Shown: piece by piece, positions 2,970 through 62,265 of the stretch | Layout: each line of letters starts with the position of its first letter | Numbering within the stretch: position 1 is the first letter of the stretch | Origin: an uncultured archaeon | GTDB taxonomy: Archaea; Thermoplasmatota; Penumbrarchaeia; JASLWR01 | Assembly (NCBI GenBank): GCA_964342815.1 | Contig: CAYFHS010000006.1 | Coordinates: 1-64,000 of the forward strand | Reading direction: 5' to 3' | Length of the DNA: 64,000 nt | Notes under the pieces: generated by a model | Database searches by the model: none | Told to the model about the DNA's origin: nothing | Seen by the model: the letters and a program-made list of their open reading frames with translations, nothing else | Program-made: the position numbers and the translations under genes

Positions 2970-3836
2970 ATGAAAGCGGATGCTGGAAAACTTCTCGATC
3001 TATTGGAGGAAGAGGTGGAAGGTATCGGGCTCGAGGCTCGTAAAAAACTGTTTCCCATTATCGATGGATTCATAAACGATCTTAAACGTGAGTTGGGAAA
3101 GGTGATGAAACTTAAGGCGGACAAGCGTCTACGGAATCTCGAAATATCACTGAAGCAGAAATACAACAAACGATCTTCTGTGGTACGACTTTCGGACATC
3201 CCCGAACAGCTCATAGCCGAGATACGCGAGATATGCGAGTTAGAACTGGCATCCAAGTACCGGGACAATGAAATAAAATCGTCCGGAAAGATGATTGCCC
3301 GTGATGAACCGGATTCCGAAACCGGGCCTATGGACGCTTCCTTATCCGACGAAATTACCGAGGAACTCCCCGTATTGACCCCAATTGAGCCTGTTGAACT
3401 CTATATCGGGTCTCTGGCATTCAGGACCATGATGGAACATTGTGTCGATCTTGGAAACCAGGAACTGGAAGCCCTGGGATTCCTGCTTGGAGATCATTTC
3501 ACCCATGGAGGGGAAGAATATACCGTTGTGGAGGAAGTGGTCACTTCGGAGCTGGATTCCTCTTCCATATCGGTGAAAATAAAGGATTTCACCTCCATGT
3601 TCGAGAGAATGTACGAGCTTGAGAAAGCTGGAAAGGACTATATTCTCGTCGGTTGGTATCATTCTCACCCGGGTCACACCTGTTTTCTCTCCCCCAGTGA
3701 TATCGAAACTCAGAAACGCATGTTCAGGGAATCTTACCACGTGGCAGTGGTGGTGGACCCCGTTAACACCGAGATCAAATCGTTCAAGCTGAAGCAGGGA
3801 GACACCCGGGAGATATCCTTCGGCGTATATAGATGA
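2970..3836 (+). CDS. JAB/MPN+ (JAMM) metalloprotease, Rpn11/CSN5-like, with a helical N-terminal extension
   Basis: EALGFLLG, VGWYHSHPGHTCFLSPSDIETQ (HxH-x10-D) and AVVVDP. ATG 2970 chosen because AGGTG lies upstream; the track starts at GTG 2958. Confidence 0.9.
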   Translation: MKADAGKLLDLLEEEVEGIGLEARKKLFPIIDGFINDLKRELGKVMKLKADKRLRNLEISLKQKYNKRSSVVRLSDIPEQLIAEIREICELELASKYRDNEIKSSGKMIARDEPDSETGPMDASLSDEITEELPVLTPIEPVELYIGSLAFRTMMEHCVDLGNQELEALGFLLGDHFTHGGEEYTVVEEVVTSELDSSSISVKIKDFTSMFERMYELEKAGKDYILVGWYHSHPGHTCFLSPSDIETQKRMFRESYHVAVVVDPVNTEIKSFKLKQGDTREISFGVYR

Positions 3837-3851
3837 ATTTAACTGGGAATA

Positions 3852-4139
3852 TCAACCTCGTTTAAGCTTTATACCCTTCGGCAGCAGGATTCCCAGTAAC
3901 AGCAGTACGAAAAAACAGATCAGAATAAAGTAGAAGAGGACCACTTCATCCGAAGGCCAATTAATCAGATCTTTAACAACGTTCACGAGAATGAAGAAGG
4001 CCGCTATCACCAATAAGAATCCAAAGACTTTCCAAGTATTCTTCACATTTAAGGGCCAGTTCCTCCTGGGGTCAGGGAATTTAAACCCTATGATCAGCAA
4101 GATCACAATGAATGCCATTATCAACCAATGGGCCCACAT
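3852..4139 (-). CDS. Small membrane protein (about 3 TM)
   Basis: Three hydrophobic stretches; starts 6 bp after the AAA gene stop, same strand. Confidence 0.65.
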   Translation of the reverse strand: MWAHWLIMAFIVILLIIGFKFPDPRRNWPLNVKNTWKVFGFLLVIAAFFILVNVVKDLINWPSDEVVLFYFILICFFVLLLLGILLPKGIKLKRG

Positions 4140-4145
4140 AATTTA

Positions 4146-36406: not shown

Positions 36407-36551
36407 TAAAGGTGACCCATCCTGGCTCCTGTAGGTACACAAGTACCGAAGGAGCAGGAGCATACTAATGCTCTGGAGCCCGTAGATTTCATCTTGAAAT
36501 TGAGGGATCAGGGCAATCTCTGATTGTCCAGAGTGAAACGGGCTCACCAAA
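36407..36551 (+). repeat. Hairpin cluster with two GTAG-stem-GA modules (REP-like)
   Basis: cct-gta-ggtac-acaa-gtacc-ga-agg; gagcat-acta-atgctc; ccc-gta-gatttca-tct-tgaaatt-ga-ggg; gggcaatc-tct-gattgtcc; closed by ggtga-ccc...ggg-c-tcacc. Confidence 0.65.
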
Positions 36552-45555: not shown

Positions 45556-45827
45556 GCCAATTTCCTTTGGAATTTGGCTCCCCGAGGGAGCCCATCCCGA
45601 AGGGATATATTTGGGGGGGATGCCCACTTCGTTCCGCTAAATCAGAGATTTAGCTGCACCCTCGGTTTTGCGAACAAAACCTACGGGTGGCCCCGCTTTC
45701 CCGCAGGAATCCCATCTGGGATTCCGAGGGTGCTCACCTTGTTACGATGCATCAGAGATACATCTGCTTCCTCGGGAGTAAACTCCCTACGGATGCAGGC
45801 GTATCTTCGATGCGCCGTGTCATCGTA
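45556..45827. repeat. Dense cloverleaf hairpin cluster containing two GTAG-stem-GA modules on the minus strand and an inverted GCAG module on the plus strand
   Basis: At least 8 stems, e.g. ggctccc-cga-gggagcc, gctaaatc-aga-gatttagc, ggttttg-cgaa-caaaacc, ggaatccc-atct-gggattcc, gggag-taaa-ctccc, ggcgtatc-ttc-gatgcgcc. Confidence 0.7.
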
Positions 45828-45909: not shown

Positions 45910-48231
45910 ATGAGCTTACCACCGGCCCCATCCGATTCCTATACTCGTTTTCTGACACCTCCTGCCACAAAGGCCGCACCACACTACGTAATGAATATCC
46001 TGCCAATTTTCAAGATCACCCATATACTCGGCAGCGGAGGTTCGGCCGACGTTTACGCAGCCGAAGATGATGACGGAAGCGAGATCGCAATAAAGATACC
46101 TCATCAGAAGTTCGATAATACCATCGACACATCAATTTATAAGAGATTCGAGAAAGAAGCGGAGATGTGGAATAATCTCGACCATCAGAACATAGTAAAT
46201 TTTTTCTCGGCCCATGACCAACCTGTACCCCATATATCCATGGAATTGGTCAAGGGCGGGTCACTCCGATCATTGATGAAGAACCACCGGCTTACAGTAA
46301 GCGAAGCAATCCATATCATGCAGCAGGTATTGGAAGGCCTTTCTTATGCACATCGAATGGCCATAGTGCACCGGGACCTGAAACCCGAGAACATCCTTTT
46401 CACGGAAGAGGGCCTTGCAAAGATCACCGATTGGGGTATAGGAAAGTTCATGTCATCGGCTACCAGCTCGAAAACGGTTGGACATCTCGGGACCATGGCC
46501 TACAGCGCCCCGGAGCAGTTCGACAAGAAACAGTTCGGGACCATCGATTGGCAGACCGATATTTTTCAGGCGGGGATCATGTTTTATGAGATGTTGACCG
46601 GGGAAAATCCTTTTGCCGACCTGGACAACGCCAGCGTAATGGGCAAGGTCCTGATACTCGATCCCAAACCGCCGAGCAGTTATAACAGTGAAATTCCATT
46701 TGCTCTGGACAATATTGTGCTTGGAGCCCTGGGGAAAAAGAAAAGCTCGAGATGGAGGAGTGCTGATGTCATGCTCTTCCAGTTGAGGCACATGATCAGC
46801 GGGGGAAAGGTGAGCCGTCAGGGTGGGATGAAAGTCCCTCCCGAGCGATCGGAAAAACTTTCTCCAAAGGAGCGGGCACGTGTCATGGCTGAAAAACTTG
46901 ATCAAATGCTAGAGGAATTGAAGAAAATGGATGTGGATGTATCGGGTTTTCTGGAAAATCATTCCAAGGTGAAACGATCCATTAAGATGGGATGGTACGA
47001 GGACGCTGTCACTTTGGGCATTGGATTACTCAAGGAATTTGAATCAAGTTACGCGGAAAAGATGAGGGAAAGGTCGCGAAAGAGAGAAATGCTCCGGCGG
47101 AACGTGAAGATACTTTTCGGGACAGCTTTTAGGTTTAAGATAGACTGCGAGCATTTATTCGAAAAGAACCTGAAAGCCCGGGAGGCTCAGGAGAACGGCG
47201 ATCTTCAGAGAGAGGAGAAACTCAACCGGGAATTGTTACAAGAGTTAACCGAAGGGATCAATGAACATCGTGAGAGGCTGAAGGAGAAGAACAAGGTCGA
47301 GAGATTGGGTGAAGAGATCTCTCAATTATATCAGAGAGCTCTTATATACGGCATCGGTCTCTCAGAAGCACCCCGCTTGATCACCAATGCATCGGCCTTC
47401 CTGAACGAAGGCCGGTTTCAGGAGGCGAAAAAAGCTTTCGCCAAGGCAAATTCCGAACTGGAGACAGCTATCCGGAAATATGAGAGGCTTGAGGGCAGCA
47501 GGAGAAGGAAAGAATATCAGGACATATGGAACGCATCCGAGAAGACCATCCGTTTGAAGTCCACGGTTTATGTGAAAAAACTATTTGTCCAGCACAAAGA
47601 GATTAGAAAGAACAATATAGTGCAGCGGAGGAATTTTATGGGAACCCCATTTGTCAAGATCCCTGGAAAGAACTTTTACATGGCCCGCCACACCGTGACA
47701 CAGAGGGAGTGGAGCATCGTCATGGGGACGGCCCCATGGGAGGGGAGGCGTTATGGGACCGAAGGGGATGAATTTCCTGCCACCTATGTCTCGTGGTATC
47801 ACTGCAGGGATTTCATAAAGAGGCTGAACGAGATGGAAGGTGTCGTCCTGTATCGGCTTCCCACCGAAGAGGAATGGGAGTTTGCTTGCAGTGCCGATAG
47901 TGATACATATTATTATTTCGGGGATGATGAAAAGCATCTGAGATATTACGCATGGTACAGGGATAATGCATGGGCTGCGGGTAAAAAGTTCGCCCACCGA
48001 GTATGCCAGAAGAAACCGAATGCATGGGGTCTCTATGACATGCACGGCAATGTATGGGAATGGTGCGAGGACGAATACGACGCAGGTGGAGAGGCCCGTG
48101 TGATAACTGGCGGGAGCTGGGATGATCTTGCCGAATACTGCCGTACCGGTGAGCACCACGGCAATGTCCCCGATGACGCAACCGACGACGTGGGTTTCCG
48201 ACTGGTTCGGGACATGTCCGGTGGGAAATGA
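45910..48231 (+). CDS. Hanks-type Ser/Thr kinase, coiled-coil, FGE-sulfatase (C-type-lectin fold) domain
   Basis: GSGGSADV, AIK, HRDLKPEN, DWG, APE; VTQREW, RLPTEEEWE, PNAWGLYDMHGNVWEWC, GGSW, GFRLV. True start may be ATG 45991. Confidence 0.9.
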   Translation: MSLPPAPSDSYTRFLTPPATKAAPHYVMNILPIFKITHILGSGGSADVYAAEDDDGSEIAIKIPHQKFDNTIDTSIYKRFEKEAEMWNNLDHQNIVNFFSAHDQPVPHISMELVKGGSLRSLMKNHRLTVSEAIHIMQQVLEGLSYAHRMAIVHRDLKPENILFTEEGLAKITDWGIGKFMSSATSSKTVGHLGTMAYSAPEQFDKKQFGTIDWQTDIFQAGIMFYEMLTGENPFADLDNASVMGKVLILDPKPPSSYNSEIPFALDNIVLGALGKKKSSRWRSADVMLFQLRHMISGGKVSRQGGMKVPPERSEKLSPKERARVMAEKLDQMLEELKKMDVDVSGFLENHSKVKRSIKMGWYEDAVTLGIGLLKEFESSYAEKMRERSRKREMLRRNVKILFGTAFRFKIDCEHLFEKNLKAREAQENGDLQREEKLNRELLQELTEGINEHRERLKEKNKVERLGEEISQLYQRALIYGIGLSEAPRLITNASAFLNEGRFQEAKKAFAKANSELETAIRKYERLEGSRRRKEYQDIWNASEKTIRLKSTVYVKKLFVQHKEIRKNNIVQRRNFMGTPFVKIPGKNFYMARHTVTQREWSIVMGTAPWEGRRYGTEGDEFPATYVSWYHCRDFIKRLNEMEGVVLYRLPTEEEWEFACSADSDTYYYFGDDEKHLRYYAWYRDNAWAAGKKFAHRVCQKKPNAWGLYDMHGNVWEWCEDEYDAGGEARVITGGSWDDLAEYCRTGEHHGNVPDDATDDVGFRLVRDMSGGK

Positions 48232-48276: not shown

Positions 48277-49674
48277 CTAATCCTCATGCATTATGTTGCC
48301 GAACAATTCTTCGTCGGTGGGCTGCGTGCTGGGTATCGGATACGATATCCAGGTGTAATTCAATAGATGTTCCCAGGTTACATTCGATGTTGTGCTGTTC
48401 CCCCCCCACGAGCCGCATCCCAAGGTCATTGACATGGGCATACCGTTTGTCCACGCCCCGCTGTTTGCCAGGCACTGCGGCTGCCTTATCATTATCCGTG
48501 ATACCTTCACGCTGAGCCCGAGCTCCCTGATGCGGGATTCTATTTTCGTATGTATACTGCAGGAATGGCCCGGTCCCGAAAAGGTTGTTATCCTGTTTAC
48601 GAGGTCTATGGCGTCTGGGAATTCCCTCCATTTGTAGAGGGTGGTGGTTACGGATAACTTTTCCCCGGAAAAGGGATAACCCACACCGACTCCCGTCTCC
48701 TCGATCATGATGAAGGTTTTTCCCTCCGGAAGGTCGATCCCCGCAAGTCCGGCAATCTTTTCCGGAGCTTGTGCAACGATGTCGCGGTTCAGTATTCCTC
48801 CGTCAACCCACATGGTATCCTGCAGCTTCTTCTTTTCTTCCGGGGATACCAGATATCCGCCTACGGCCTTAAGTTCATCCACCATATCATCGTAAACCTC
48901 TTCCTGAATTAGAATCGAGTTTTCAGTCGAGCAGCTCGTGGCATAATCGAATGTCTTGGATCGCATTATCTTGTCCGCGGCGTCCGCGAGGTCTGCCGTC
49001 TCGTCCACGATACACACTGAATTACCGGCACCAACTCCCTGGCTGGGGGTTCCGCTGCTGTATGCTGCCCTCACCATTCCGCTGCCGCCTGTGGCAAGGA
49101 TCATATCGCACTGCTTCATAAGCTCCTTGCTTGCTTGGACCGTGAGTTCATCGACGTTTATCACCAGATCTTCCGGCCAACCGTTCTTCTTCAATGTGGC
49201 CCTGATCCTGTTCGTAGCCATCTGATTGCAGGCAATTGTCCTGGGATGGGGTGCCATTATAATGGCATTTCTGGTCTTGATGGCTGTAATGGCTTTCACG
49301 AAGGGAGTCGCTTCGGCATTTGTAACCGGGATCAACGCACCGATGACACCCATTGGTTTAGCGATCTTAATGATACCTTTTTCTATGTCATGTTCGACGA
49401 TCCCTACGGATTTTTTACCTAACATATCCCGAAGGGTTCCCTTTATTTTTGTCATTATTTTACCGTATTTATGCGGTGCGTAGCCCATGCGGCTGTCCTC
49501 GACGCAGAACTCCGCCAGCTCGGTGGCGAATTTGGGTTCGACACCCGACCAGGCAACCCTTGTTGCCAGATCGTCCACCTGTTCCTGTGTAGCGAATTCA
49601 ATTTTTTTCTGTGCGGCTTTTGCCCGCTCTATTAGTCCTCTGATATAATCTGCAGCTTCCTGTTGGTCTGCCAT
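48277..49674 (-). CDS. CoA-acylating aldehyde dehydrogenase (SauS/SucD/AdhE-ALDH type)
   Basis: P.TN, ATGGSGMV, GVGAGN, SKTFDYATSCSTENS, GEKLS, TLGCGSWGGN. Confidence 0.85.
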   Translation of the reverse strand: MADQQEAADYIRGLIERAKAAQKKIEFATQEQVDDLATRVAWSGVEPKFATELAEFCVEDSRMGYAPHKYGKIMTKIKGTLRDMLGKKSVGIVEHDIEKGIIKIAKPMGVIGALIPVTNAEATPFVKAITAIKTRNAIIMAPHPRTIACNQMATNRIRATLKKNGWPEDLVINVDELTVQASKELMKQCDMILATGGSGMVRAAYSSGTPSQGVGAGNSVCIVDETADLADAADKIMRSKTFDYATSCSTENSILIQEEVYDDMVDELKAVGGYLVSPEEKKKLQDTMWVDGGILNRDIVAQAPEKIAGLAGIDLPEGKTFIMIEETGVGVGYPFSGEKLSVTTTLYKWREFPDAIDLVNRITTFSGPGHSCSIHTKIESRIRELGLSVKVSRIMIRQPQCLANSGAWTNGMPMSMTLGCGSWGGNSTTSNVTWEHLLNYTWISYPIPSTQPTDEELFGNIMHED

Positions 49675-49735
49675 TAATTACCCTCCTTTATCTGGATTAT
49701 TTATTTCTTGAATTTTATATCCTTGGACCAGTTCT

Positions 49736-49930
49736 CGTGTAAAGCCGTCCCATTCTGGTTCAACTTTACCAAGAAGTCAGTCCAAATGTTCCTGACTTTA
49801 CGTGTAAAGCCGTCCCTTTTTGGTACGTCTTTACCAATAAGTCTGTCCAAATGTGCCTGACTTTACGTGTAAAGCCGTCCCATTCTGGCACGTCTTTACC
49901 AAGAAGTCAGTCCAAATGTTCCTGACTTTA
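49736..49930. repeat. Intergenic tandem repeat, 3 x 65 bp
   Basis: Units 49736-49800, 49801-49865 and 49866-49930 (cgtgtaaagccgtccc...tttaccaagaagtcagtccaaatgttcctgacttta), with a few substitutions each. Confidence 0.95.
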
Positions 49931-50015
49931 CTCATGAACTGCCCCTCGATCCTTTTCAACATGCTTGTCAAACTGCCGGATCCCATGGGAAATCCGTACA
50001 GGAATATGAACATTA

Positions 50016-51260
50016 CTATCTCGAGACCGGGGGTACTATTTCCTTCTTGCCCGGCACGTGTTCATAGCATATCATGGGGGGATCGGACACCGGACAGATG
50101 AAGGAGCAAATCATGCAGCTCACGCATTTTTCATCGTCAGGGATTGGTCTCCGTTTTCCCCCGTCCCAACCCAGGCACTGACCGCCGGCATCCCGGCAGA
50201 CGATATAGCACTGGCCGCACCCGATACACCGATCGAGGTCGTAACGGGCGACCCCCTGGTGATCCAGGTCGAAGGCATCCGTTGGGTGTATGTTGGGAAG
50301 TGCTTTTCCGACGAGTTCGGAAACGCTGTCGATGCCTTTCGAATCCATGAAATCGGAAAGCCCCTCTATCATGTCCTCCACTATCCCGTACCCGTAATGT
50401 ATGACGCCAGTGGTCATCTGGACCGTGGACGAACCGCAGAGTATATATTCAAGGGCATCCACCCACGTTTCGACACCGCCGAGGCCCGAAAGGGGCAGGC
50501 TAAGCTCTCTGCACTGGGCGAGCTGGGCTATGCAGCGAAGGCCGATGGGCTTCACCGCCGGTCCGGAGTATCCACTCATGGCGCTCTTTCCGGCCACGTT
50601 GGGATGTGGTATGAATGTATCGGGATCGATCCCCACCAGGGCACTCACAGTATTGATCGCCGAGATTCCATCCGCACCTCCCCTCTTTGCATAGAGAGCA
50701 GGCTCTGTGATATCGGTGATGTTGGGGGTCATCTTTGCTATGATGGGCAGTGAAGTGTTCTCCCGCACTATTCGGGTGAAGTTCTCAAGAAGTTCGAAGG
50801 CCTGCCCCACCTTCATTCCCGAGCCCTCAACTGTCATGTGGGGACAGGAAAAGTTAAGCTCCAGCATGTCGGCGCCGGTCTCCTCCACCCCCCTTGCCAG
50901 CAGGCCCCACTCCTCCTCGGAGAAACCCATTATACTTACTATGACCGGATGATCTGGATAATGCCTCTTCAAGTAGCTTATGTCGGCCAGGTTGTCCTCG
51001 AAGCTTCGGTCAGATATCTGTTCCACGTTCTGGAGACCTACAAGCTTTCGAGATTCGTAATCGTATCCTGCCATTCGCGGTGATGGGTGAATTATCTTTG
51101 TCCTACCCGCATGTACGGTCTTGAAGACGGCCCCCCCAAAACCCTGATCGAAAGCTCTTGCCACCATTTCCGCTGTGTTAGATACCGGCGAGGACGATAG
51201 AAGGAAGGGATTGGGAAACTGAACCCCACACATCTCGATACTCAAATCCTTTCCTGTCAT
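50016..51260 (-). CDS. preA: Dihydropyrimidine dehydrogenase subunit PreA
   Basis: GLQNVEQIS, ELNFSCPH, KMTPN, SAINTV, GYSGPAVKP; C-terminal 2x[4Fe-4S] (CIGCGQC, CVSCMIC). Confidence 0.95.
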   Translation of the reverse strand: MTGKDLSIEMCGVQFPNPFLLSSSPVSNTAEMVARAFDQGFGGAVFKTVHAGRTKIIHPSPRMAGYDYESRKLVGLQNVEQISDRSFEDNLADISYLKRHYPDHPVIVSIMGFSEEEWGLLARGVEETGADMLELNFSCPHMTVEGSGMKVGQAFELLENFTRIVRENTSLPIIAKMTPNITDITEPALYAKRGGADGISAINTVSALVGIDPDTFIPHPNVAGKSAMSGYSGPAVKPIGLRCIAQLAQCRELSLPLSGLGGVETWVDALEYILCGSSTVQMTTGVIHYGYGIVEDMIEGLSDFMDSKGIDSVSELVGKALPNIHPTDAFDLDHQGVARYDLDRCIGCGQCYIVCRDAGGQCLGWDGGKRRPIPDDEKCVSCMICSFICPVSDPPMICYEHVPGKKEIVPPVSR

Positions 51261-52597
51261 TCAAACGCACCTCCTGCGGATTTATTTTCCTCAAGCATCT
51301 TCATTATACATTCGGCGGCTGTCTTGCCGTCCTGCACCGCCTGAACGATAAGAGCCGGTCCCCTTGCGGCATCCCCTCCGACGAATATCCTTTTATGGGT
51401 CGTTGAAACTCCATCATCGCCGGTCTTTACTAGGCCGTTTGGCAGATTTTCGACCAACTCGGAAAGCCCCTTGTTGCCCTCCTCGGACCTCATACCGATA
51501 GCCTTGACAAAAAAATCCACATTCAGACGGTATTCGGTCCCGGGAACGGTCACGAGATTCGCCGCAGAATGATCATCAGGGTTCTTCCAGTCTGTCTCGC
51601 AGCCCTTAAGACCGGTTAGCCTGCCGTCCTCGCCTATCAGCTCCGTGACAATACTCTGAGTGCGCAACGTAATGTTGTGGGAAAGGGCCAAATCGAGATC
51701 CTCCTCGTCTGCAGGCATCTCCCGGAGGCTGCGGCGGTAAATGACATAAACCTTGTTAGCGCCCAGGGTTGCACAAGTAGTGGCCGCGTCCATGGCAACG
51801 GAACCGCCTCCCACCACCGCAACGTTCTTGCCACGTATCTTTGATCCCAGTTCGACGTTCCTTCCCGATCTCATGCCCTCAAGGAACTTCTGCGAATCGG
51901 TAACGTTCACAAGATCGCTTCCCGGGATGTCCAATCGCGCAGGATTCCAAGTGCCTATTCCCATGAAGACGGCTTCGAATCCTTCCGAGAGGAGCCTGTC
52001 GGCCTCCCCCCTCTCGATCCTGCTTCTGGTTTTCAATTCCACTCCCAGGGTAAGAACGTCCTCAAGTTCACGTTCCACGAATTCCGTGTTCATGCGAAAT
52101 TCCGGCACGCCGTACCTTAGGACACCTCCCGCCTTCTCCCTCCCCTCGAATATAGTAATGCCGTACCCGTTCTTGGCCAGCTCGGCAGCACAGGCGAGGC
52201 CAGCAGGGCCGGAGCCGATGACTGCAATTTGTCCCTTCCCAGATCCCTTTTTCTTAATAGCATCAAATCCGGTCTCCCAGCCATATTCCACCAGGAACCT
52301 CTGGATCTTGCCGATTTCAATGGGACGGTCTATACCGGTGGCGCTGCACCCTTTCATACATAGTCTTTCCGTAGGACAGAGTGCGCCGCATATCCCTCCG
52401 AGTATGTTGTTGTTCTTTATGGTCCTTACTGCTCCCTTTATGTTCTTGAGCTTCAGTTTTCTAATGAATGTGCCCGGGTCCGTACCCGCAGGGCAGTCCC
52501 GGCTGCAGGGCGGCTCGTGGCAGTTCAGGCACCGGGACGCTTCGGAGATCGCTTGAAGAACACCATATGCCTTCTTATTACGTTCCAACCCGTTCAT
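51257..52597 (-). CDS. preT: Dihydropyrimidine dehydrogenase subunit PreT (GltD-like)
   Basis: EASRCLNC...CPAG, CGALCP..LC, GSGPAG, GGGSVAMD, GGD; overlaps the preA start. Confidence 0.9.
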   Translation of the reverse strand: MNGLERNKKAYGVLQAISEASRCLNCHEPPCSRDCPAGTDPGTFIRKLKLKNIKGAVRTIKNNNILGGICGALCPTERLCMKGCSATGIDRPIEIGKIQRFLVEYGWETGFDAIKKKGSGKGQIAVIGSGPAGLACAAELAKNGYGITIFEGREKAGGVLRYGVPEFRMNTEFVERELEDVLTLGVELKTRSRIERGEADRLLSEGFEAVFMGIGTWNPARLDIPGSDLVNVTDSQKFLEGMRSGRNVELGSKIRGKNVAVVGGGSVAMDAATTCATLGANKVYVIYRRSLREMPADEEDLDLALSHNITLRTQSIVTELIGEDGRLTGLKGCETDWKNPDDHSAANLVTVPGTEYRLNVDFFVKAIGMRSEEGNKGLSELVENLPNGLVKTGDDGVSTTHKRIFVGGDAARGPALIVQAVQDGKTAAECIMKMLEENKSAGGAFE

Positions 52598-52599
52598 AT

Positions 52600-53928
52600 C
52601 TAACCCTCCATCACCCTGAAAGCGTCATCCATAATCTCAAGGGATCTGTCTATCTGATCCATGGTCAATACCAATGGCGGCTGTATTCGGATAACATTTG
52701 CCAAAAGTCCCCCTAGTCCCAGAAGTAATCCGTTGTCCTTGCAAATTTCCATGAACTTCTTTGCTTCGGCCGTCCCGGGCGTCTTTTTCTCACGATCGCT
52801 AACCAGCTCAAACCCGATCATGAGTCCTTTTCCCCTGATATCACCGATCAATGCATGTTCCTCCATCATTTCATTGAGGCGCCGCTTGTAATAATTGCCC
52901 TTGGCCAGGGCTCCTTCCTGAAGGTTTTCCTTCTCTATTATCTCAAGATTGGAGAGCCCTGCTACCATGGCCAGCGGATTTCCGCCGAAGGTGGAGAACA
53001 GGTCTTTGGGCATGAGACAGTCGGATATTTCTTCGGAGGTAATAAGTGCCCCCATTGCAAAACCCGAACCAATGCCTTTTGCCATAGTCATCATGTCCGG
53101 TTTAACCCCCCAGTTCTCGATCCCCCAGAAATGCTTTCCGGTTCTTCCGAAACCGGTCTGTACCTCATCGCTAATAAAGAGCCCGTCGTATTTATGGACG
53201 ATCTCAGCCAGTATTGGAAAGAAATCCGGTACCGGCTCCGTAATACCCCCCACGCCCTGAAGTGGCTCGGCCAGCAGGGCCGCGACCCTCTTTGGCGTCT
53301 GACACCTTATTACCTTATCGGCGAACCACGCACATTCCATATCACACGTTTCGGGGTCCTTTCCGAAGTCACACCTGTAACAGTAACAGTTCGGCGTTCC
53401 TATGGTACCGGTGGCGTAGGTCATGTTTTGCCGCCAGGTGCCCTGGTTGGTAAGGCTCATGGCCATAAGCGTCCTCCCGTGAAAAGCTTCCAGCAGGGAG
53501 ACCACAAAATTGCAGTTGGTGTATTTTTTAGCAAGATGCAGTGCCGCTTCGTTCGCTTCGCTGCCCGAATTAACGAAAAAACATTTCTCTAAGCCTTCGG
53601 GGGAAATGGAAGCCAGTTTCTTGGCATATAGAGCCATGGGTATGGTAGGATAAAGCGTAGTGGTGTGCATCAAAAGGTCGAGTTGTTTTTTCAGGGCTTT
53701 GGTCATCGTGGGATGGCAGTGCCCCGAGTGAACGGTGCAGACACCTGCGAAAAGATCGATGTATGATTTACCTTCGCAGTCGAAGAGGATCGCTCCCTCA
53801 CCCTTGACGAATAATTTTGGTTCAGCATAGTAATGACCCACTGCGGGAACAAGGTGTTTTTTCTCTATTTCCAGTATGTCTTCTGTGGAGAATTTGCTTA
53901 AATTGAAAAGGTCTTCAAATTCACTCAT
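52600..53928 (-). CDS. Class III aminotransferase, AGXT2-like (probable beta-alanine aminotransferase)
   Basis: SGSEANE, FHGRT, DEVQTGFGRTG, TMAKG, STFGGNP; located in the pyrimidine operon. Confidence 0.85.
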   Translation of the reverse strand: MSEFEDLFNLSKFSTEDILEIEKKHLVPAVGHYYAEPKLFVKGEGAILFDCEGKSYIDLFAGVCTVHSGHCHPTMTKALKKQLDLLMHTTTLYPTIPMALYAKKLASISPEGLEKCFFVNSGSEANEAALHLAKKYTNCNFVVSLLEAFHGRTLMAMSLTNQGTWRQNMTYATGTIGTPNCYCYRCDFGKDPETCDMECAWFADKVIRCQTPKRVAALLAEPLQGVGGITEPVPDFFPILAEIVHKYDGLFISDEVQTGFGRTGKHFWGIENWGVKPDMMTMAKGIGSGFAMGALITSEEISDCLMPKDLFSTFGGNPLAMVAGLSNLEIIEKENLQEGALAKGNYYKRRLNEMMEEHALIGDIRGKGLMIGFELVSDREKKTPGTAEAKKFMEICKDNGLLLGLGGLLANVIRIQPPLVLTMDQIDRSLEIMDDAFRVMEG

Positions 53929-53983
53929 GATTATTTCACCTCACATATGTGGTAATTTATTTGCCCCTGGGAACCGTTGAAGA

Positions 53984-54853
53984 TCAGAGTTCTAAGAGGT
54001 CGTCGTACATTTCCGGCCGTCTGTCCCTGAAGAACTGCCATATGTTTCGCACCTCGTCGATCATGTCGAAATCCAGAGCGGCTGCAATGATCTCATCCTT
54101 GTCTCTGCTTCCTTCAGCAACAATCTGGCCTCGGGGGTCGCAGAAATAACTGGTACCGTAGAATTCACCGATGTTCCATGGTGCTTCAAATCCCACTCTG
54201 TTTATGGCACCGACGAAATACCCGTTGGCCACAGCATGGGCAGGCTGTTCCAGTTTCCAAAGATACTCGGAAAGTCCGGCAACTGTAGCAGAGGGGTTGA
54301 AAATAATCTCCGCTCCGTTCAATGCCAGTGCCCTTGCTCCTTCAGGGAAATGACGGTCGTAGCAGATGTATACCCCTACGTCAGCATATTCGGTCTCGAA
54401 CACTGGATACCCAAAATTCCCAGGTCGGAAATAATACTTTTCGAAAAATCCAGGCAGTACATGTGGTATGTGTGTCTTTCGATATTTTCCAAGGTAGGTT
54501 CCGTCGGCATCGATAACCGCGGCGGTATTATAATAGAAACCTGACATTTCCTTTTCATAAATAGGAACTATGAGGACCATGTGGTGCTTCTCTGCTAGAT
54601 CCATCATGGCTTCCGTGGTGGGACCGTCGGGTATCGGTTCTGCCATGTCATACCATTTTGGTCTCTGTTCGGCGGCGAAATAGGGCCCGTTGAACAGTTC
54701 CTGGAGACATAGTATCTTCACGCCCTTGGATGCGGCTTCTCCTATCAATTTCACATGCTTTTCCATCATGTAGCTCTTTATCTCGTCTACGGGAAGGTCG
54801 GTAGAAATATCGGCCTTGGCCTGTATCAATCCACATTTTACTATTCTTGACAT
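53984..54853 (-). CDS. Nitrilase-fold beta-ureidopropionase
   Basis: LQELF, KYRKTHIP, ICYDRHFPEGAR (E-K-C triad); probable start ATG 54853 (MSRIVKCGLIQ). Confidence 0.88.
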   Translation of the reverse strand: MSRIVKCGLIQAKADISTDLPVDEIKSYMMEKHVKLIGEAASKGVKILCLQELFNGPYFAAEQRPKWYDMAEPIPDGPTTEAMMDLAEKHHMVLIVPIYEKEMSGFYYNTAAVIDADGTYLGKYRKTHIPHVLPGFFEKYYFRPGNFGYPVFETEYADVGVYICYDRHFPEGARALALNGAEIIFNPSATVAGLSEYLWKLEQPAHAVANGYFVGAINRVGFEAPWNIGEFYGTSYFCDPRGQIVAEGSRDKDEIIAAALDFDMIDEVRNIWQFFRDRRPEMYDDLLEL

Positions 54854-54999
54854 GTTATTCACCATTTTATATATATTCGGCAATGTCGATATTGATGGAA
54901 ATATGCCAATCTTATTTAAATTATTAATATATCATATACTTACTTGGACAAATTTCATACGGTATTGTTGAATCCAATGTTAAAGGCAGGGAGCTTCTG

Positions 55000-55788
55000 A
55001 TGGATTACGCGGAAAAAATCCGAAAAGCCATTGAATGGATCGTCGGATCGAACCGTCTTGTGATATTCACCGGCGCAGGGGTAAGTACGGAGTCTGGCCT
55101 CCCGGATTACCGCGGTCCCCATGGGGTATGGACCAGAAGGGACAAGGGATTGGCTCCGCCGAAGTCCAAAAACATGGATGAGGTCCATCCCAATCGGACC
55201 CATTATTCCCTGGTCGAGCTTTTGGGATTGGGGAAACTCAATTTTCTCATATCCCAGAACGTGGACAACCTGCATCTTGCTTCCGGAATACCCCCGGATA
55301 TGATCGCCGAGCTGCATGGAAATCACGCGTTGATGAAGTGCATGGATTGCGACCATCGCCTATCTTTCAGCAAAGCAGGATGGGATAAAGGTACCTGGGG
55401 ACAGGGGTATCGTACGCAAAAATCACGCTTGGGACAACCCCAATGTCCGAGGTGCAGCGGCCGGCTAATATCCAGTGTGGTGAATTTTGGAGACCCCATG
55501 CCTGAAAAAGAGATTTCCATATCAATGGAAAGGTCGAGAACCTGCGACGTCTTTATTGTCATTGGCTCTTCTCTAGTTGTTAGTCCGGCAGCTAATATGC
55601 CTGCACTGGCTCTCGAGAACGGCGCGAAATTGATCATTATTAATCAGGGTGAGACTCCTTACGACCACTTGGCCGAATTAAGGTTCTGGGAGAACGCCGG
55701 CTCTGTGATGGAAGATATAGTCAATGGATTGAAGAGAATTGTTCAGCAAAAGAGCAAATCCTATAATGTCAATAGAGCGAACAAGTAA
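55000..55788 (+). CDS. cobB: NAD-dependent deacylase (sirtuin), SIRT6/7-like sequence pattern
   Basis: GAGVSTESGLPDYRGPHGVWT, SQNVDNLH, ELHGN, two CxxC, GSSL, IIN. Confidence 0.9.
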   Translation: MDYAEKIRKAIEWIVGSNRLVIFTGAGVSTESGLPDYRGPHGVWTRRDKGLAPPKSKNMDEVHPNRTHYSLVELLGLGKLNFLISQNVDNLHLASGIPPDMIAELHGNHALMKCMDCDHRLSFSKAGWDKGTWGQGYRTQKSRLGQPQCPRCSGRLISSVVNFGDPMPEKEISISMERSRTCDVFIVIGSSLVVSPAANMPALALENGAKLIIINQGETPYDHLAELRFWENAGSVMEDIVNGLKRIVQQKSKSYNVNRANK

Positions 55789-55795
55789 AGAAAAT

Positions 55796-55875
55796 AAAGA
55801 GGGCCGATGACCCCCAAGGCAAACATCGGCCCGATAGAAAAATAATAATATCAAGCATACAGAGGAAGAGGGCCT
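55796..55875 (-). repeat. Left copy of an inverted structured element
   Basis: gggccgatg-acccccaaggcaaa-catcggccc plus an A-rich linker and agagga; homologous to the reverse complement of 57055-57129. Confidence 0.65.
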
Positions 55876-56256
55876 GGTGCCCTCAGGGTCGGTGTGAGCC
55901 GACCTTATTTGTGCGAATAATATTGGTGAAACACTATTTGACGAGGCAGATGTTCCGCTAGAGCCACATCAGTCTTGAAATCTATTAGGCTAAATGAAAA
56001 GGCAGTTCCCCATCAAATCCTTTTCGAGGTTCGCCTGTTTGACAATATCCAAGAGAAAAGCACTTTGGCGTACCCAGATATGAATATATCGTACATAGCA
56101 GAATGAAATGAGTGGATGGCTGTTCAACGACAGACTAGTGAATTCCTTTTGACACTGTGGCGAGTTTATTTGAATACCACGTTTTACGAAATCAATAGTT
56201 ATAGTCCTAAGAATTTAAGTAACATAATCCAATATAAAGAAATTGAGGGGTATATT

Positions 56257-56838
56257 ATGTCACTCGTTACAATAGTATTTATTATTTTGTTGCTTATATT
56301 AAATGCTTGTCTAATAGGATTAATAATCTATTTTTGGAAAAATTTATCAGTCATAAAAGCAGAAAATAAAACACTTAAGGATAACCAATGGGAAATAAAG
56401 CAAGAATTTGAAAAAAATAAACTGATCGAAATTGAAAGAATAAAACAAACATGGGATGCTCAAAAACAAAATGAAATTGCGAACATAGTTGCACAGACAA
56501 GACAAGATACAAGCAATCGTTCAAGAGCAGCATTAAAAGGTAGAATTGGAGAACAAATGGCTCCACTAATGACAGAATTTTATTCGAAATACGAGTTATC
56601 TGATGCAAGGTTTATTGGAGAACCAATAGATTATATAATCTTTAAGAATTTATCTAAATACAAGTCCGAGAGAGAAAACAAAATTCCCCCGGACCAACGT
56701 TCACAAATTGAGATTATAATTGCTGACGTAAAGACTGGTAAAGCATATCTTAGTCAAGAACAAAGAAGAATTCGAGATGCTATATTATGTAAAAGAGTAA
56801 ATTGGGATATAATTCGTTTAACAATACCAGACGATTAA
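56257..56838 (+). CDS. Membrane-anchored Holliday-junction-resolvase-like PD-(D/E)xK endonuclease (Endonuc_Holl-type)
   Basis: TM plus coiled coil; SR...GRIGEQMAP, DARFIGEPIDYIIF, DVKTG..LSQEQRRI. GAGGGG RBS before ATG 56257. AT-rich (16/60 and 18/60 GC in two sampled lines). Confidence 0.85.
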   Translation: MSLVTIVFIILLLILNACLIGLIIYFWKNLSVIKAENKTLKDNQWEIKQEFEKNKLIEIERIKQTWDAQKQNEIANIVAQTRQDTSNRSRAALKGRIGEQMAPLMTEFYSKYELSDARFIGEPIDYIIFKNLSKYKSERENKIPPDQRSQIEIIIADVKTGKAYLSQEQRRIRDAILCKRVNWDIIRLTIPDD

Positions 56839-57054
56839 AATGTGAGTACAGTTAACTAACAATTATTTGCCCATTGACTTCACGTAACTCTCTTGGCTTC
56901 TGAAGTTTCCGAGGGGCCGTTGCATCTCGGATTCAACGGAGTAAAAAGGGCACACTTGCCGATACTGAAAACTTCCTTTCTGGAACGTTTTTGTATTTTC
57001 TCACAGCTATGCTCGAAAATAACACAGGGGCAATGCCCCGGAGCGGAGTTAGCG

Positions 57055-57129
57055 CCACCCCTCCTCTATCTTTTCGATATTATTTTTGGGTCAGGCCTGC
57101 GTTGGCCTTAGGGGCCGCAGGCCCTTTTT
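57055..57129 (+). repeat. Right copy of an inverted structured element, ending in hairpin plus T5
   Basis: ggcctgcg-ttggccttaggggc-cgcaggcc-c-ttttt. Confidence 0.65.
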
Positions 57130-57300
57130 GGATAAGAAGAAAGAGATTATAAAAACAAAAGCGGTGAAAGTAATCCACCAATATATTTATCCATAAGATG
57201 TATTATAGTTGTCAATATTTCCGTTAGCTTTATTATAGAAAAAAGACGATGTTATTCAAAGTACAAATTTCAAGTTTTATACCTCTAGAACGGTGATCAC

Positions 57301-60300
57301 ATGTTCGGTTCTCTGAAAAGGTCTCTTAATGTCTTTATACTTGTCCTTATGATAACCAGCAGTTCTTATCATTTTTCCTTCCCGACCGATGATGGAGATA
57401 CTTTTTATAACGGTAAAATACGCAGGGTCGACTTAGATATCGATACCTCCCAGGAATCAACTAGGGCTGAATTGTCTCAGATACTACTAACCGAAACTTT
57501 CGAATCCAATTCTTTTGCAACAAATGGATGGGCCAAGGAGGACGGCAGCGGCGGGGTCGAGATAGTCACCACCAACCCGAAGAATGGTACACGACACCTG
57601 CATTTCAAAGGAAACAGCTATAATACACACGGCTATATTTCAAAGGTTTTGAACCTGTCCGCTTATTCCCAAGCAGTCCTGGAATTCGAAGCCTACGGGG
57701 GGCCTAGCAGCGGTGGAGGTATAGACGGACCGGGAGGAAGCGAGGACATTCTCTGGGTGGATTTTCGTTCGTCGGCAACCAGCCAATGGACCACTTTAAA
57801 CTACTGGCATGGAGCTAACTGCAGCCTAAACCAGTACCGCTTCGAAAGAGTGACCCTACCTTCTTCGTCGTTTACGAACACCAGTGCAATTCGATTTAGA
57901 AACAAGATAAGTGTGAATAGCGAGTATTATCGCATTGACGATATTAAGGTAAAAGCAGCACCGCAGTTGGAAATTAATACTGATAACATCGCAGCTACTC
58001 CATCCTCGATATTGAGATACAATGGGACTATTAATATAAGCGGATCGTTCACGGATGACGTTGGTTTCGGGATATTGGATTATAAAATATCAATCGGAAT
58101 AAGGGATCCGGAGGGAAAAGAGACTCTATTGATAGATAACAAAACAAGCGGGAACGATTCTCTGAATATTCAACAACAGTCGCCAGGTGAATTTAATTTT
58201 TTCTACATCTGGTCCCCTTCGGAGAATTTTCTTTTCGGTAAATACGATATCAATATTAAGGTCTACCACAGACTCGGATGGAAATGTCTGCTTAGTTATG
58301 ACGATAATGATTGTAACTTCACACTTTTATCCGTAGCTCCTTACTTTCGGAATGAGTCTATCTTTTTCGAAAAAGAACCTCTAAACGCTCTGGACCCGGA
58401 TGGGATTCCAATTACAATAAAATTCCATGATGTTGATCGCCAATCCCCCGATGACTTTTTCATGAATCTGACCCTACGAGGAACGGAGAACAATATTACT
58501 ATATTCAAAAGTGCAACAAACGTGTCCGGGCTGAATATTTCAATGACGGAAAACGGGACCTACGAAGCAGCCCACGTATGGTATCCGGAAAATCCGGATG
58601 ATTTGGTCGAGGGGAGATACAGCGTTGACCTTGGTTTGTGGGAGGAAGGCGGACCGTTGGTAGAGATGGAAATCTTTAATATCGAAAGAAACGTCACTCT
58701 GGTAAAGAGATATGTTCCAGGGATAATATCACTGGCGTGTCAACCGGACACTATCAATATGAGCGGTTCCGGGAAAACCACGATACAGGGTGAGTTTTTC
58801 GATAAGGACACGAGCTCCATGATGGATTTCGAAATATCACTGAAGATAAGGGATGGAGATGATAAGGAGATAATTCTTACAGATGGGGCAAAGAGCGGCG
58901 AGAATGGTGTAATCATCGAGAAATCGGGAATATTCAGGTGGCGTATTACTTTTGCATATGATCCCCCGGTGACCCTTCGTCCGGGACCCTATGATCTTTA
59001 TATGGATGTATTCGACGGTGAATCAACCCTCACTAGTGAAGGGTTTAATAACAATACCGATGAGCTGTTTATTTACAACAACACCAGTCCAATAATCCAT
59101 GAGATCACACTCAGCAGATCGGTAGTGAACAAATACGGCAATGATTCCGCAAGGCTGAGCATCATCTTTTCAGATCCAGATGGCGAATCCATGGGTAATT
59201 TCACCATCAATCTGACCCTAATTGACTCGGAGGGCAATTTATATACACTGGTGAACGGTGAAAAGGAAGGCCCCAATGCAAGCATATCGTATCTGGCCCC
59301 CATAGACGGTCACAGTTACGTATTCACGTTTGATATCGACCCAGATACTTCGTTTACGGAGGGCCCGTACGGACTGTCTTTCAATGTCCGGGACAAATGG
59401 GGTGGTATTGATGGATTGGCTTACGGTGAGAACGACCTGAACCTTACTTTCTTCTACAATTATATACCGTCCCCTCCATCGAAAATTTGGCCCAACAGCA
59501 CCACCGATAAGCTTCCATTGATAAGCTGGTGGGGGGCATTGGACCTGGAAACACCCCACGAAGAGCTCGAGTATTCTATAAGGATCGGAACCGCCGGAGT
59601 TGACGATAATATCCTGGCCTGGCACGATGTAGGCCAGCGAACGACCTATCAGGTAATGGAAGAACTTGAGGTAGGTTTTTACCATATCCAGGTAAAGAGT
59701 TATGACGGTGATTTTTACTCCGAAGTTTCCAGCTCCATCATGACCATTGCCCCTGATGGCAATCACCCTCCAGGGGTGCCTGGTGCCATCAGTCCGCTTT
59801 ACACCGTCCGTCGAGATCCCACCATCACCTGGGATGCCAGTATTGACCGGGATGTCAACGATCTTATCGAGTACTTCATAAGCATTGGAACGGACTGGCA
59901 TGCCAGTGATATCATAAAGAGCACACCCACCAGTGTGAACACGATCTACCAGCTACCGTTCATGCTGTCCTACGGCACATATTACGTTCAGGTTATGGCC
60001 ACCGACGGATACGAATTTTCCCCTGTCAGGGAACAGCGGATGATCATCTTCGATCCGTCAGATAACATAGCTCCGTTCCCGCCCAAATCTATTATGCCGG
60101 ATGTGACCCGGAACCCATACCCATTGATCCAGTGGGAAGGCGCCGTGGACCTGAACGGCGACGACCTTCTTTTCTGGTTCAGGATAGGCAGCGGCCCCGG
60201 CCAGGGGGATATTATACCTTGGAGTAGCACGGGGAAGAGCAATTATTTCCAGATCGAGAAGTCAATGGCCCCCGGGGATTATTATGTCCAGGTAAAATGT

Positions 60301-62265
60301 TATGACAGCCAGGCATTCTCAAGGATATTCGAAGCAGTTATCCGGGTGAAAACGGAAAGAGAAATCATCGGTCCCACGGAGATCATACCTCGTATCTCAT
60401 CGGATCCCACGCCTCTCATAAACTGGAGCGGAGCACATTACATGAACAGTCCCGGTACAAATGAAAACTTTTCTTACCTTATCCGTTTAAGCAGCGAGCC
60501 TTCTCTCGGTGATCTGCTCCCGTGGAGTCTGGTTTCGAATACTACGAGTTATCAGGTGGAAAAGCCCTTAAGACGCGGCGATACTGTTTATGTGGAGATC
60601 AAGGCATTCGATGGGCACCAGTATTCCGAAGTTTCAATATTCGATCTGTGGATCGGTGATTTTTCTCTGACGGTTGGGTTCAACGAAACGAACTATATCT
60701 ATAAGATAACGGGAGAGGCCAATCAGACCATCCGAGGATTCATCAAGAACAGCGGCCGGGATGACGTTACCGTGGAACTGGGTTTGGGCGGTACTTTTGC
60801 GAAATACGTCAAAGTACCAGCAGAGCCGCTTCATATCAAAAGCGGGGAGATGGTGAGCGTTCTTCTGACGGTGAACATACCCGATTCGGCCAATGTGAAC
60901 CGTGACTCGGTGATCGTTCTAATAGCCACTTCGACGGATGGTGCTGCCGCTCAGTCCGAGCTTTTGGGATTCGCAAGAGAGAAAGCGGAGGATGAAACAT
61001 GGAGTGAGGCACTGGGGATGAACCTGAACCTAATTCTCGGTTCTATAGTGCTGTTATTGGCTTTTTTCATTCTCCTTATATTGATAGTAAAACGTTCAAA
61101 GCGAGGTAAACGTGAACGATTCGAAGTAATGGAGGTGTCTAAAAGCTCCGAGGCCGTGGTAATCGATGATCTCGTACAGACCAGCATCTATTCCACCCAA
61201 CGCTTAAGCGATCGGCGTACCTTCGAAGCACTGGACAAGACGCTTCTCAAAATGTTCAAGGCTCATGGTGTAAGAACGAAATCCAGAGTGAAAGGCCAAA
61301 AGGGCAGGGCATTGGGTGATGGTAGCAAGGGTAAGAAGACTCCAGCACTTCCACCTCCATCTCCCGGTGCGCTAGAGCCGGGAGAAGTTAAGAAAATGCC
61401 GCCACCTCCAGGAGAACGTGTAGAGTTCCTTCCGCCGGGGGAGGACGTCCCGGCTGAGGAGCTTCCTCCCGCTCCGGAAATGGAATACATTCCGCCTGAG
61501 GGGTCCGGGAAGACACCTGTGGCCATTGGGGATGCCATAGTTGATGCAGAGGAAATTACCGAGAAAATACTTGAGTCCGATGAGATATCGGAACAACCGG
61601 AAGCGGATGCCGTTGCGGTTTCGTTAGAAGATGACGAGAACGTCGATGAAATGCCTGAGGGATTTGCGGAAACGCCCGAAGATGTATCAGTTGCAGTTGA
61701 GGGAGATGGTGAAGAGCCACTCTACGACTTGTCGGAAGATGCCGGGTCACTCCGGCCTACAGGAGATGATGATGATTCGGAACTGTCCGAAGTATTATCA
61801 CAGGATATGGATGAGGATTCGGAACTGTCCGAAGTATTATCACAGGATATGGATGAGGATTCGGGAATATCAGATGCAGTGACGGATGAGCCAAACAAGG
61901 GTGATCCGGCGGAACCGGATGAGCCACTCGAGTCGGCGGAACCGGATGAGTCTCATCCTGAAGAATCCGTCATTCAACCCGATTCCCCCATTGGAGCCGA
62001 GCCGTCAGGGGAGGTGGCTCCCGAACCTAGATCCGAATCACCGGAGCCGGTAGAGCAGCCAAAAGAGCCCGAAACTCCGCCTTCGGAAGCTGATATGTCA
62101 GTACCATCCGAAGGGGATCGCCCAACCACGGATGATCCGACGCCCCCGAAGTCCCTGGAGGAGGCTCCCGAGGCGGAAAAGGAAGATAGCGCAACTGATG
62201 TCGGTGACGATTCCAGCGCCCTTGATGATATAATGGATATACTGGGTATCGATGAGGATGAGTAA
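57301..62265 (+). CDS. Giant surface protein (1654 aa): jelly-roll tip, Ig stalk, FN3-like repeats, TM, Pro/acidic cytoplasmic tail
   Basis: Signal peptide; repeated P..P..I.P...P.I.W...D....L.Y.I.IG; TM LILGSIVLLLAFFILLILIV. Confidence 0.88.
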   Translation: MFGSLKRSLNVFILVLMITSSSYHFSFPTDDGDTFYNGKIRRVDLDIDTSQESTRAELSQILLTETFESNSFATNGWAKEDGSGGVEIVTTNPKNGTRHLHFKGNSYNTHGYISKVLNLSAYSQAVLEFEAYGGPSSGGGIDGPGGSEDILWVDFRSSATSQWTTLNYWHGANCSLNQYRFERVTLPSSSFTNTSAIRFRNKISVNSEYYRIDDIKVKAAPQLEINTDNIAATPSSILRYNGTINISGSFTDDVGFGILDYKISIGIRDPEGKETLLIDNKTSGNDSLNIQQQSPGEFNFFYIWSPSENFLFGKYDINIKVYHRLGWKCLLSYDDNDCNFTLLSVAPYFRNESIFFEKEPLNALDPDGIPITIKFHDVDRQSPDDFFMNLTLRGTENNITIFKSATNVSGLNISMTENGTYEAAHVWYPENPDDLVEGRYSVDLGLWEEGGPLVEMEIFNIERNVTLVKRYVPGIISLACQPDTINMSGSGKTTIQGEFFDKDTSSMMDFEISLKIRDGDDKEIILTDGAKSGENGVIIEKSGIFRWRITFAYDPPVTLRPGPYDLYMDVFDGESTLTSEGFNNNTDELFIYNNTSPIIHEITLSRSVVNKYGNDSARLSIIFSDPDGESMGNFTINLTLIDSEGNLYTLVNGEKEGPNASISYLAPIDGHSYVFTFDIDPDTSFTEGPYGLSFNVRDKWGGIDGLAYGENDLNLTFFYNYIPSPPSKIWPNSTTDKLPLISWWGALDLETPHEELEYSIRIGTAGVDDNILAWHDVGQRTTYQVMEELEVGFYHIQVKSYDGDFYSEVSSSIMTIAPDGNHPPGVPGAISPLYTVRRDPTITWDASIDRDVNDLIEYFISIGTDWHASDIIKSTPTSVNTIYQLPFMLSYGTYYVQVMATDGYEFSPVREQRMIIFDPSDNIAPFPPKSIMPDVTRNPYPLIQWEGAVDLNGDDLLFWFRIGSGPGQGDIIPWSSTGKSNYFQIEKSMAPGDYYVQVKCYDSQAFSRIFEAVIRVKTEREIIGPTEIIPRISSDPTPLINWSGAHYMNSPGTNENFSYLIRLSSEPSLGDLLPWSLVSNTTSYQVEKPLRRGDTVYVEIKAFDGHQYSEVSIFDLWIGDFSLTVGFNETNYIYKITGEANQTIRGFIKNSGRDDVTVELGLGGTFAKYVKVPAEPLHIKSGEMVSVLLTVNIPDSANVNRDSVIVLIATSTDGAAAQSELLGFAREKAEDETWSEALGMNLNLILGSIVLLLAFFILLILIVKRSKRGKRERFEVMEVSKSSEAVVIDDLVQTSIYSTQRLSDRRTFEALDKTLLKMFKAHGVRTKSRVKGQKGRALGDGSKGKKTPALPPPSPGALEPGEVKKMPPPPGERVEFLPPGEDVPAEELPPAPEMEYIPPEGSGKTPVAIGDAIVDAEEITEKILESDEISEQPEADAVAVSLEDDENVDEMPEGFAETPEDVSVAVEGDGEEPLYDLSEDAGSLRPTGDDDDSELSEVLSQDMDEDSELSEVLSQDMDEDSGISDAVTDEPNKGDPAEPDEPLESAEPDESHPEESVIQPDSPIGAEPSGEVAPEPRSESPEPVEQPKEPETPPSEADMSVPSEGDRPTTDDPTPPKSLEEAPEAEKEDSATDVGDDSSALDDIMDILGIDEDE
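61774..61864 (+). repeat. Exact 42-bp coding tandem duplication (DSELSEVLSQDMDE x2)
   Basis: 61774-61815 is identical to 61816-61857, followed by a partial third unit. Confidence 0.92.

Follow-up and report, generated by a model that had tools for sequence, protein, structure and literature searches.

What are the two folded DNA segments that bracket an AT-rich, foreign-looking nuclease gene in an uncultured marine Thermoplasmatota archaeon, and do they move it? The locus lies in a stretch of 64,000 nucleotides (the window; GenBank assembly GCA_964342815.1, contig CAYFHS010000006.1), which belongs to contig C6 of the draft genome referred to here as G000 (4.35 Mb, 45.3% GC, 89% complete). An earlier note, made from the sequence alone, had described the segments as inverted, covarying elements and had read them as the structured recombination ends of a non-autonomous cassette, as an invertible segment, or as two copies of an unknown ncRNA. 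We show here that the flanks are 2 of 69 intergenic copies, at 62 loci, of a palindromic repeat that is present in three of four genomes of one marine archaeal family and was found in none of 37 other genomes searched. Comparison between species indicates that the repeat marks sites at which accessory genes differ or are exchanged. However, no enzyme that would move it could be found.

The two flanks and the gene between them

The core of the observation holds. In the 5-kb region around the gene, the longest inverted repeat is 55796-55847 versus 57078-57129 (52 nt, 73%), the loops of the two terminal hairpins are identical at 11 of 14 positions, and the intervening gene encodes a PF10107 protein that scores far above the curated cut-off (87.9 versus 23.8 bits). 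Several details had to be corrected. Whereas all four swapped stem pairs were said to be compensatory, only three of them change and the fourth stays G-C. The sirtuin gene to the left is 49.4% GC and not ~62% as a sampled line had suggested. Similarity between the left and the right flank, described as continuing inward for about 100-170 nt, extends about 70-100 nt from the hairpins, beyond which the left flank has a second, oppositely facing half and the right flank has unrelated nested modules. The argument that a G-C to G-U change favours the outward-reading strands does not hold across the family, given that the two main stems show 24 A-C against 11 G-U on that strand, and the folding strand is thus not settled. 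Finally, the two flanks are not each other's closest relatives (12th and 30th of 41), so they are independent family members rather than a freshly duplicated pair. The left flank is a complete unit, with a B half facing outward (55801-55904) and an A half facing inward to 55975, whereas the right flank is an outward-facing B half only (57027-57124), preceded by the nested modules (56895-57010). The features of the locus are collected in Table 1.

Table 1. Features of the nuclease locus, in window coordinates.
Feature	Position	Strand	Basis
Left host gene, Sir2-family deacylase; its last 13 codons and stop come from the tail of the insertion	55000-55788	+	PF02146; the orthologue in the same-genus genome G001 is 249 aa versus 262 aa
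Whole insertion (1.44 kb), absent from the syntenic site of G001	55743-57186		Alignment to the G001 locus ends at 55742 and resumes at 57187; G001 has 133 unrelated nt there
Left outer tail, with a probable decayed copy of the terminal motif near 55769-55777	55743-55800	-	Not homologous to G001; motif defined in the family genome G003 and weakly detectable across G000 tails (p=0.002); this one copy assigned by eye
Left terminal hairpin (B type), 9-bp stem with a mini-hairpin in the loop	55801-55832	-	Sequence and fold
T-rich spacer and second hairpin h2 (55868-55884)	55833-55884	-	Sequence and fold
Central palindrome GGTCGG-N6-CCGACC, symmetry axis of the full unit	55887-55904		Sequence and family alignment
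Inward-facing A half of the left unit (spacer plus decayed terminal hairpin 55944-55975), which makes the left flank a complete unit	55905-55975	+	A-half HMM E=2.5e-11 (the copy was among the seeds; the match spans 55887-55975); fold; alignment with other full units
Passenger gene, 193-aa predicted membrane-anchored PD-(D/E)xK nuclease (PF10107), 30.1% GC, catalytic motifs intact (E99, D125, D157, K159)	56257-56838	+	Profile match and motifs; start agrees with the gene calls
Nested small hairpin modules of a second repeat class (~106 loci genome-wide)	56895-57010		One of the seeds of the module search; independent matches occur elsewhere
Right unit, atypical centre/h2 hairpins (57027-57064) and T-rich spacer	57027-57092	+	Fold; which hairpin is the centre is ambiguous
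Right terminal hairpin (B type), facing outward	57093-57124	+	Covariance model E=3e-7 (the copy was in the training set)
Right outer tail with a probable decayed terminal motif (~57133-57152)	57125-57186	+	Comparison with G001 and with the G003 motif
Right host gene, 1654-aa probable secreted/surface protein, adjacent to the sirtuin in G001	57301-62265	+	Gene call and synteny

A family of palindromic repeats

An iterated nhmmer search of G000 gave the 69 copies at E<0.01, whereas the reversed genome gave none, which is far beyond chance. None of the 69 copies overlaps an ORF of 150 aa or more, although 85% of the genome is coding. On an ordinary MAFFT alignment of 42 copies, 13 of 16 stem pairs show changes on both sides, and 91.8% of cells are paired against 30-46% for slid registers. 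A covariance model found 46, 22 and at least 30 copies in G000, G001 and G003, respectively, but none in G002, the fourth genome of the family, and none in 37 other genomes of the class or phylum. A pattern search with the central motif agrees, with only scattered matches elsewhere. An exact-pattern scan of genome contigs hit only Thermoplasmatota archaeon ETNP2_MAG_1 and one uncultured archaeon, and a metagenome scan returned a single hit, at a G001-like locus. In viral contigs, 72 loose pattern hits were obtained, none of which scored with the family HMM.

A full unit (~260-285 nt) consists of a tail, a terminal hairpin, a T-rich spacer, an optional h2 hairpin, the central palindrome GGTCGG-N-CCGACC, and again an optional h2, a spacer, a terminal hairpin and a tail. 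In G003 the units are 258-286 nt long with imperfect inverted end motifs, and their ends are sharply conserved up to GAAGAGAG-N4-TCTAACGA, after which conservation stops. This motif is decayed but detectable in the tails of G000. Another tail motif, AATCCC near +48, is enriched but may belong to the target. The second class of small hairpin modules occurs at ~106 loci in G000, 23 of them at units, where the modules are nested in the stems as insertions of 100-250 nt, mostly after a GC-ending tetramer (24 of 36 junctions) and with no duplication needed. Free-standing, BIME-like arrays of the same modules lie in the window at 45618-45797 and 36502-36543. A different repeat of ~65 bp is present in three tandem copies at 49736-49931, upstream of the aldehyde dehydrogenase gene, and its core 16-mer occurs 32 times on 22 contigs, often at contig ends and sometimes interrupted by the nested modules.

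Empty sites and exchanged cargo

At the nuclease locus, G001 is collinear on both sides but lacks the repeats, the tails and the nuclease. The gap in G001 is occupied by a different palindrome, a branched structure of ~100 nt (positions 9203-9304 of the G001 locus; -45.6 kcal/mol for the 150-nt stretch), which has no relative in G000 or in the other loci retrieved. All four same-species contigs carry the cassette in the same orientation.

Similar differences were found elsewhere. In G000, the segment C13:65085-66337 (a B half, a gene of 31% GC and an A half) corresponds to only 25 nt in G001, and a cargo-free unit on contig C46 corresponds to 6 nt, while a G001 unit corresponds to 8 nt between the aligned flanks in G000. 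One cassette with an FGE-domain gene is present at two loci, C10:1485-3058 and C19:32382-33754, and its homology begins and ends at the terminal hairpins. Of 24 anchored G001 sites, 17 are shared with G000 and 7 lack the repeat there (one of them doubtful), and 8 of 13 assessable shared sites differ on the side facing the centre of the unit. In one case, a 1.2-kb gene found only in G000 starts right after the central palindrome. At the start of G001 contig C103 (positions 200-300 of the locus retrieved), a sequence resembling a group II intron domain V/VI end lies at the position where G000 has a repeat unit. It should be kept in mind that G000 and G001 are only ~80% identical, so that junctions are approximate and gain cannot be told from loss at a single site.

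The two sides of a copy differ consistently. In G000 the GC content is 0.423 on the inner and 0.484 on the outer side (lower on the inner side in 44 of 55, p=5e-7), and in G001 it is 0.39 versus 0.49, whereas in G003 the trend is not significant (p=0.08). The inner flanks of G001 copies are conserved in G000 at 0.39 versus 0.84 for outer flanks (n=19, p=0.005). Pairs of copies are outward-facing, tandem or inward-facing in 7, 6 and 2 cases, and outward pairs enclose DNA of 38.8% GC as compared with 48.5% for inward pairs (n=7 and 2). These tests treat copies within one genome as independent, which they are not fully. The cargo is heterogeneous and comprises beta-helix/NosD/PKD surface proteins, FGE-domain proteins, a polysaccharide biosynthesis protein and unknowns, with whole genes of 0.6-6 kb. 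In contig C97 of G001, three direct copies of the centre-h2-spacer part separate genes of 28-29% GC, resembling a cassette array (positions 3511-6629 of the locus retrieved).

The nuclease itself appears to be carried rather than required. PF10107 was not found in G001 or G003, both of which carry the repeat, and its three nearest homologues (54-59% identity) have no repeat nearby. As a protein it does not differ from other PF10107 Endonuc_Holl proteins, with which it shares a hydrophobic N-terminus, presumably a membrane anchor, and the E / PD / DxK motifs; only its setting as cargo is special.

Search for a mobilising enzyme

No cognate enzyme gene lies next to any copy examined. Profile searches for Y1 and RAYT proteins (PF01797, NF047646) gave no hit in G000, and the hits in G001 and G003 are IS200-type elements whose ends are different sequences and lack the repeat, although the drafts are only 89-93% complete. 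IS91 (Y2), PF01609 (DDE) and IS110 loci that were examined also lack the repeat. A search for GIY-YIG proteins returned one UvrC-sized hit per genome and one weak 230-aa hit in G003. Neither a Pfam scan of 51 neighbouring proteins, judged on the top 25 of 48 families, nor the ORFs bracketed by repeats linked an enzyme to the repeat. No target duplication was found at six G003 units with both end motifs or at filled and empty junctions, although old copies may have lost it. No excision joint or circle was seen in contigs from four sequencing runs, but their cover was fragmentary and of low depth, making this result uninformative. GC skew gave no usable replichore.

The one recombinase of note is an IntI/XerA-like tyrosine recombinase at G000:C7:140389-141564 (positions 10389-11561 of the locus retrieved), the only tyrosine recombinase found in all four family genomes. 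It scores as archaeal XerA (NF040815, just over the cut-off) and lacks ~40 residues of the IntI-specific insertion relative to VchIntI4, an insertion that archaeal IntIs are said to have (10.1101/2022.02.06.479319). It is followed by an attI-like site with different first cassettes in G000 and G001, and 28 attC-like sites occur in G000, on C7, C14, C69, C2, C18, C47, C68 and others, together forming an apparent integron.

A probable non-autonomous cassette

The reading offered in the earlier note is partly supported. The structured ends of a non-autonomous cassette are supported by the empty site in G001, by the cassette with the same hairpins at two loci and by the other filled and empty sites. 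The note had also stated what would speak against it, namely similarity confined to generic terminators and a nuclease gene syntenic in relatives without these ends; we found that the similarity is genome-wide but to one specific family, and that the gene is absent where the ends are absent. The invertible and the ncRNA readings are not supported. The note missed that the ends belong to a repeat family of ~60 loci and that the left flank is itself a complete two-armed unit.

We consider the locus, with fair confidence, to be a composite, non-autonomous mobile cassette in which a foreign gene for a predicted nuclease is held between two copies of a lineage-specific palindromic element. Our analysis directly shows that the element is dispersed and intergenic with a structure conserved by covariation, that whole units, halves with cargo and two-ended cassettes are present in one species and absent at the same site in a sister species, that one cassette occurs at two loci bounded by the hairpins, that the centre-facing side is AT-rich and variable whereas the outer side is ordinary conserved genome, and that the sites examined lack target duplications. 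In contrast, the mechanism is inferred: an enzyme encoded elsewhere would bind the hairpins as extruded or single-stranded DNA, cut in or just beyond the tails or near the central palindrome, and excise and re-insert the unit with or without adjacent DNA and without target duplication, as RAYT does with REP/BIME elements, while new cargo would enter or be exchanged on the centre side. Hairpin-directed cleavage and joining, and any activity of the nuclease on junction DNA, likewise rest on inference. The copies are diverged (median identity to the two window copies 62-67%), and thus current activity is not shown; cargo exchange at shared sites could also come from homologous recombination between repeats.

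As to the mobiliser, no candidate reaches even odds. An HUH/Y1-type protein missing from these drafts is the likeliest. Tails of 25-75 nt and co-transfer of adjacent DNA fit an HUH enzyme of the RAYT kind, and TnpA(REP) cleaves at variable distance from its hairpin and recombines BIMEs (PMC3333891). A DDE or other enzyme follows closely, and the resident tyrosine recombinase is less likely.

Relation to known elements

The repeat works most like bacterial REP doublets (BIME/REPIN). Both are multicopy, extragenic, imperfect palindromes in inverted doublets with structured spacers, able to fold as one long hairpin, with nested mosaic arrays and no target duplication, and DNA inserted between dimer partners has been noted in the bacterial elements (PMC3733652). 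However, the unit described here is longer (~265 nt), with a central palindrome, T-rich arms and conserved tails, its stem foot is variable with no GTAG or CGTC tag, no REPtron flanked by the repeats was found in the drafts, and it carries whole genes. In a survey of HUH enzymes, subclass 1.1 (IS200-type) was the only TnpA(Y1) subclass observed in archaea (PMC6006769).

Composite MITEs (TIME-COMP, integron mobilization unit) are also similar in that two short non-coding elements with inverted ends bracket and mobilise passenger genes with an enzyme supplied in trans (PMC13367494), and our comparative evidence, which is not an assay, indicates that two copies here bracket a passenger and move as a unit. 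Those elements derive from Tn3-family ends, and target duplication is typical of them. Here the ends carry GC-rich hairpins, no duplication was found, and no matching autonomous transposon was seen among the PF01609, IS110, IS91 and IS200 loci examined. Integron cassettes, including those of archaeal integrons, share structure-conserved sites next to AT-rich accessory genes, occasional arrays of direct repeats and an R-box-like terminal motif (10.1101/2022.02.06.479319), but the repeat has no R''-L''-L'-R' layout with extrahelical bases, its sites are dispersed and in both orientations, its cargo is not co-oriented and can be very large, and the genome has its own separate attC family. Non-autonomous IS200/IS605 derivatives share subterminal hairpins and the lack of duplication, and Y1 chemistry is plausible; however, the ends here are inverted copies rather than distinct left and right ends, and they do not match those of the resident IS200 elements.

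Putative REPs have been predicted computationally in archaea (PMC12306157), but we found no description of this family or of such cargo capture in the papers that could be searched, a collection that is incomplete. REPIN/BIME-type mobile palindromes and composite MITEs are known mainly from bacteria. The present family provides sequence-defined sites at which an archaeal lineage of oxygen-minimum zones appears to gain and swap accessory genes, many encoding large surface proteins, and is a concrete route for archaeal genome plasticity with defined substrates (unit, tail motif, centre) and two enzyme candidates. Identification of the enzyme would either extend RAYT-like biology to archaea or show an integron-type recombinase working on a second class of site. 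It is possible, although less likely than not by a wide margin, that this is a dispersed archaeal gene-capture system of a new kind, in which symmetric hairpin units capture, swap and relocate whole foreign genes at dozens of chromosomal sites, driven by the integron recombinase, which lacks the IntI-specific insertion yet sits at an apparently active attI/attC array, or by an unrecognised single-strand enzyme rather than a RAYT or classical transposase.

Alternative explanations

The alternative that survives best, although unlikely, is a specific version of the model above, in which the repeat is a recombination site of the resident IntI/XerA-like recombinase and the terminal TCTAAC motif would act as an R box, giving a second, dispersed gene-capture system beside the integron. 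The conserved G003 ends at TCTAACGA resemble the RYYYAAC core site, no target duplication was found, the recombinase is shared by all four family genomes and sits beside the attI-like site, and split forms of the repeat carry direct repeats of h2 plus centre around the cargo. However, G002 has the recombinase but no repeat, none of the 28 attC-like sites lies within 1 kb of a copy, the repeat lacks L-box or extrahelical-base geometry and has randomly oriented cargo, and insertions extend 25-50 nt beyond the motif in G000 and G001.

It is somewhat less likely that the repeats are old, immobile selfish or structural DNA, and that cargo turnover comes only from homologous or illegitimate recombination at cruciform-forming sites. 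The many copies shared between G000 and G001, the divergence of copies and the absence of an identified enzyme would fit this view, but units without cargo are cleanly present or absent between species, the duplicated cassette ends at the hairpins, and the strong asymmetry between inner and outer sides is not expected from symmetric fragility.

Transcribed structured RNAs, or bidirectional terminators or insulators kept beside foreign genes, are very unlikely. Although covariation is strong, T-rich tracts lie next to hairpins and the copies are intergenic, the orientation of flanking genes is even (15/15/14/11), with no preference for gene 3' ends, no Rfam family came near a gathering score, A-C outnumbers G-U on the outward strand, and the unit is two-fold symmetric, tolerates nested insertions in its stems and is gained or lost between species. 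Lastly, an invertible segment, or a cassette mobilised by its own nuclease cutting the cruciform ends, is largely refuted despite the inverted outer halves and the relation of PF10107 to archaeal Holliday-junction resolvases, given the constant orientation in same-species contigs and in cassettes shared with G001, the absence of PF10107 from the hits in repeat-bearing G001 and G003, the repeat-free nearest homologues and the probable membrane anchor.

Neighbouring genes

The window also contains, at 48277-54883, a co-oriented cluster of a CN-hydrolase, a class III aminotransferase, two dihydropyrimidine-dehydrogenase-like subunits and an aldehyde dehydrogenase, labelled by Pfam matches and probably serving reductive pyrimidine degradation, a pathway that is inferred. 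A Ser/Thr kinase fused to an FGE-sulfatase domain is encoded at 45910-48231, and FGE-domain genes also occur as cargo of the repeat. Outside the window, the match to a second sirtuin at G000:C5:127511-128245 contains one in-frame TAG, as do matches in G001 and in a further genome (G012), which could reflect pyrrolysine or readthrough or an overrun of the alignment. The right host protein has an acidic C-terminal region containing a 14-residue repeat, and two same-species contigs encode 1640 aa (42 nt shorter), probably with one repeat unit fewer.
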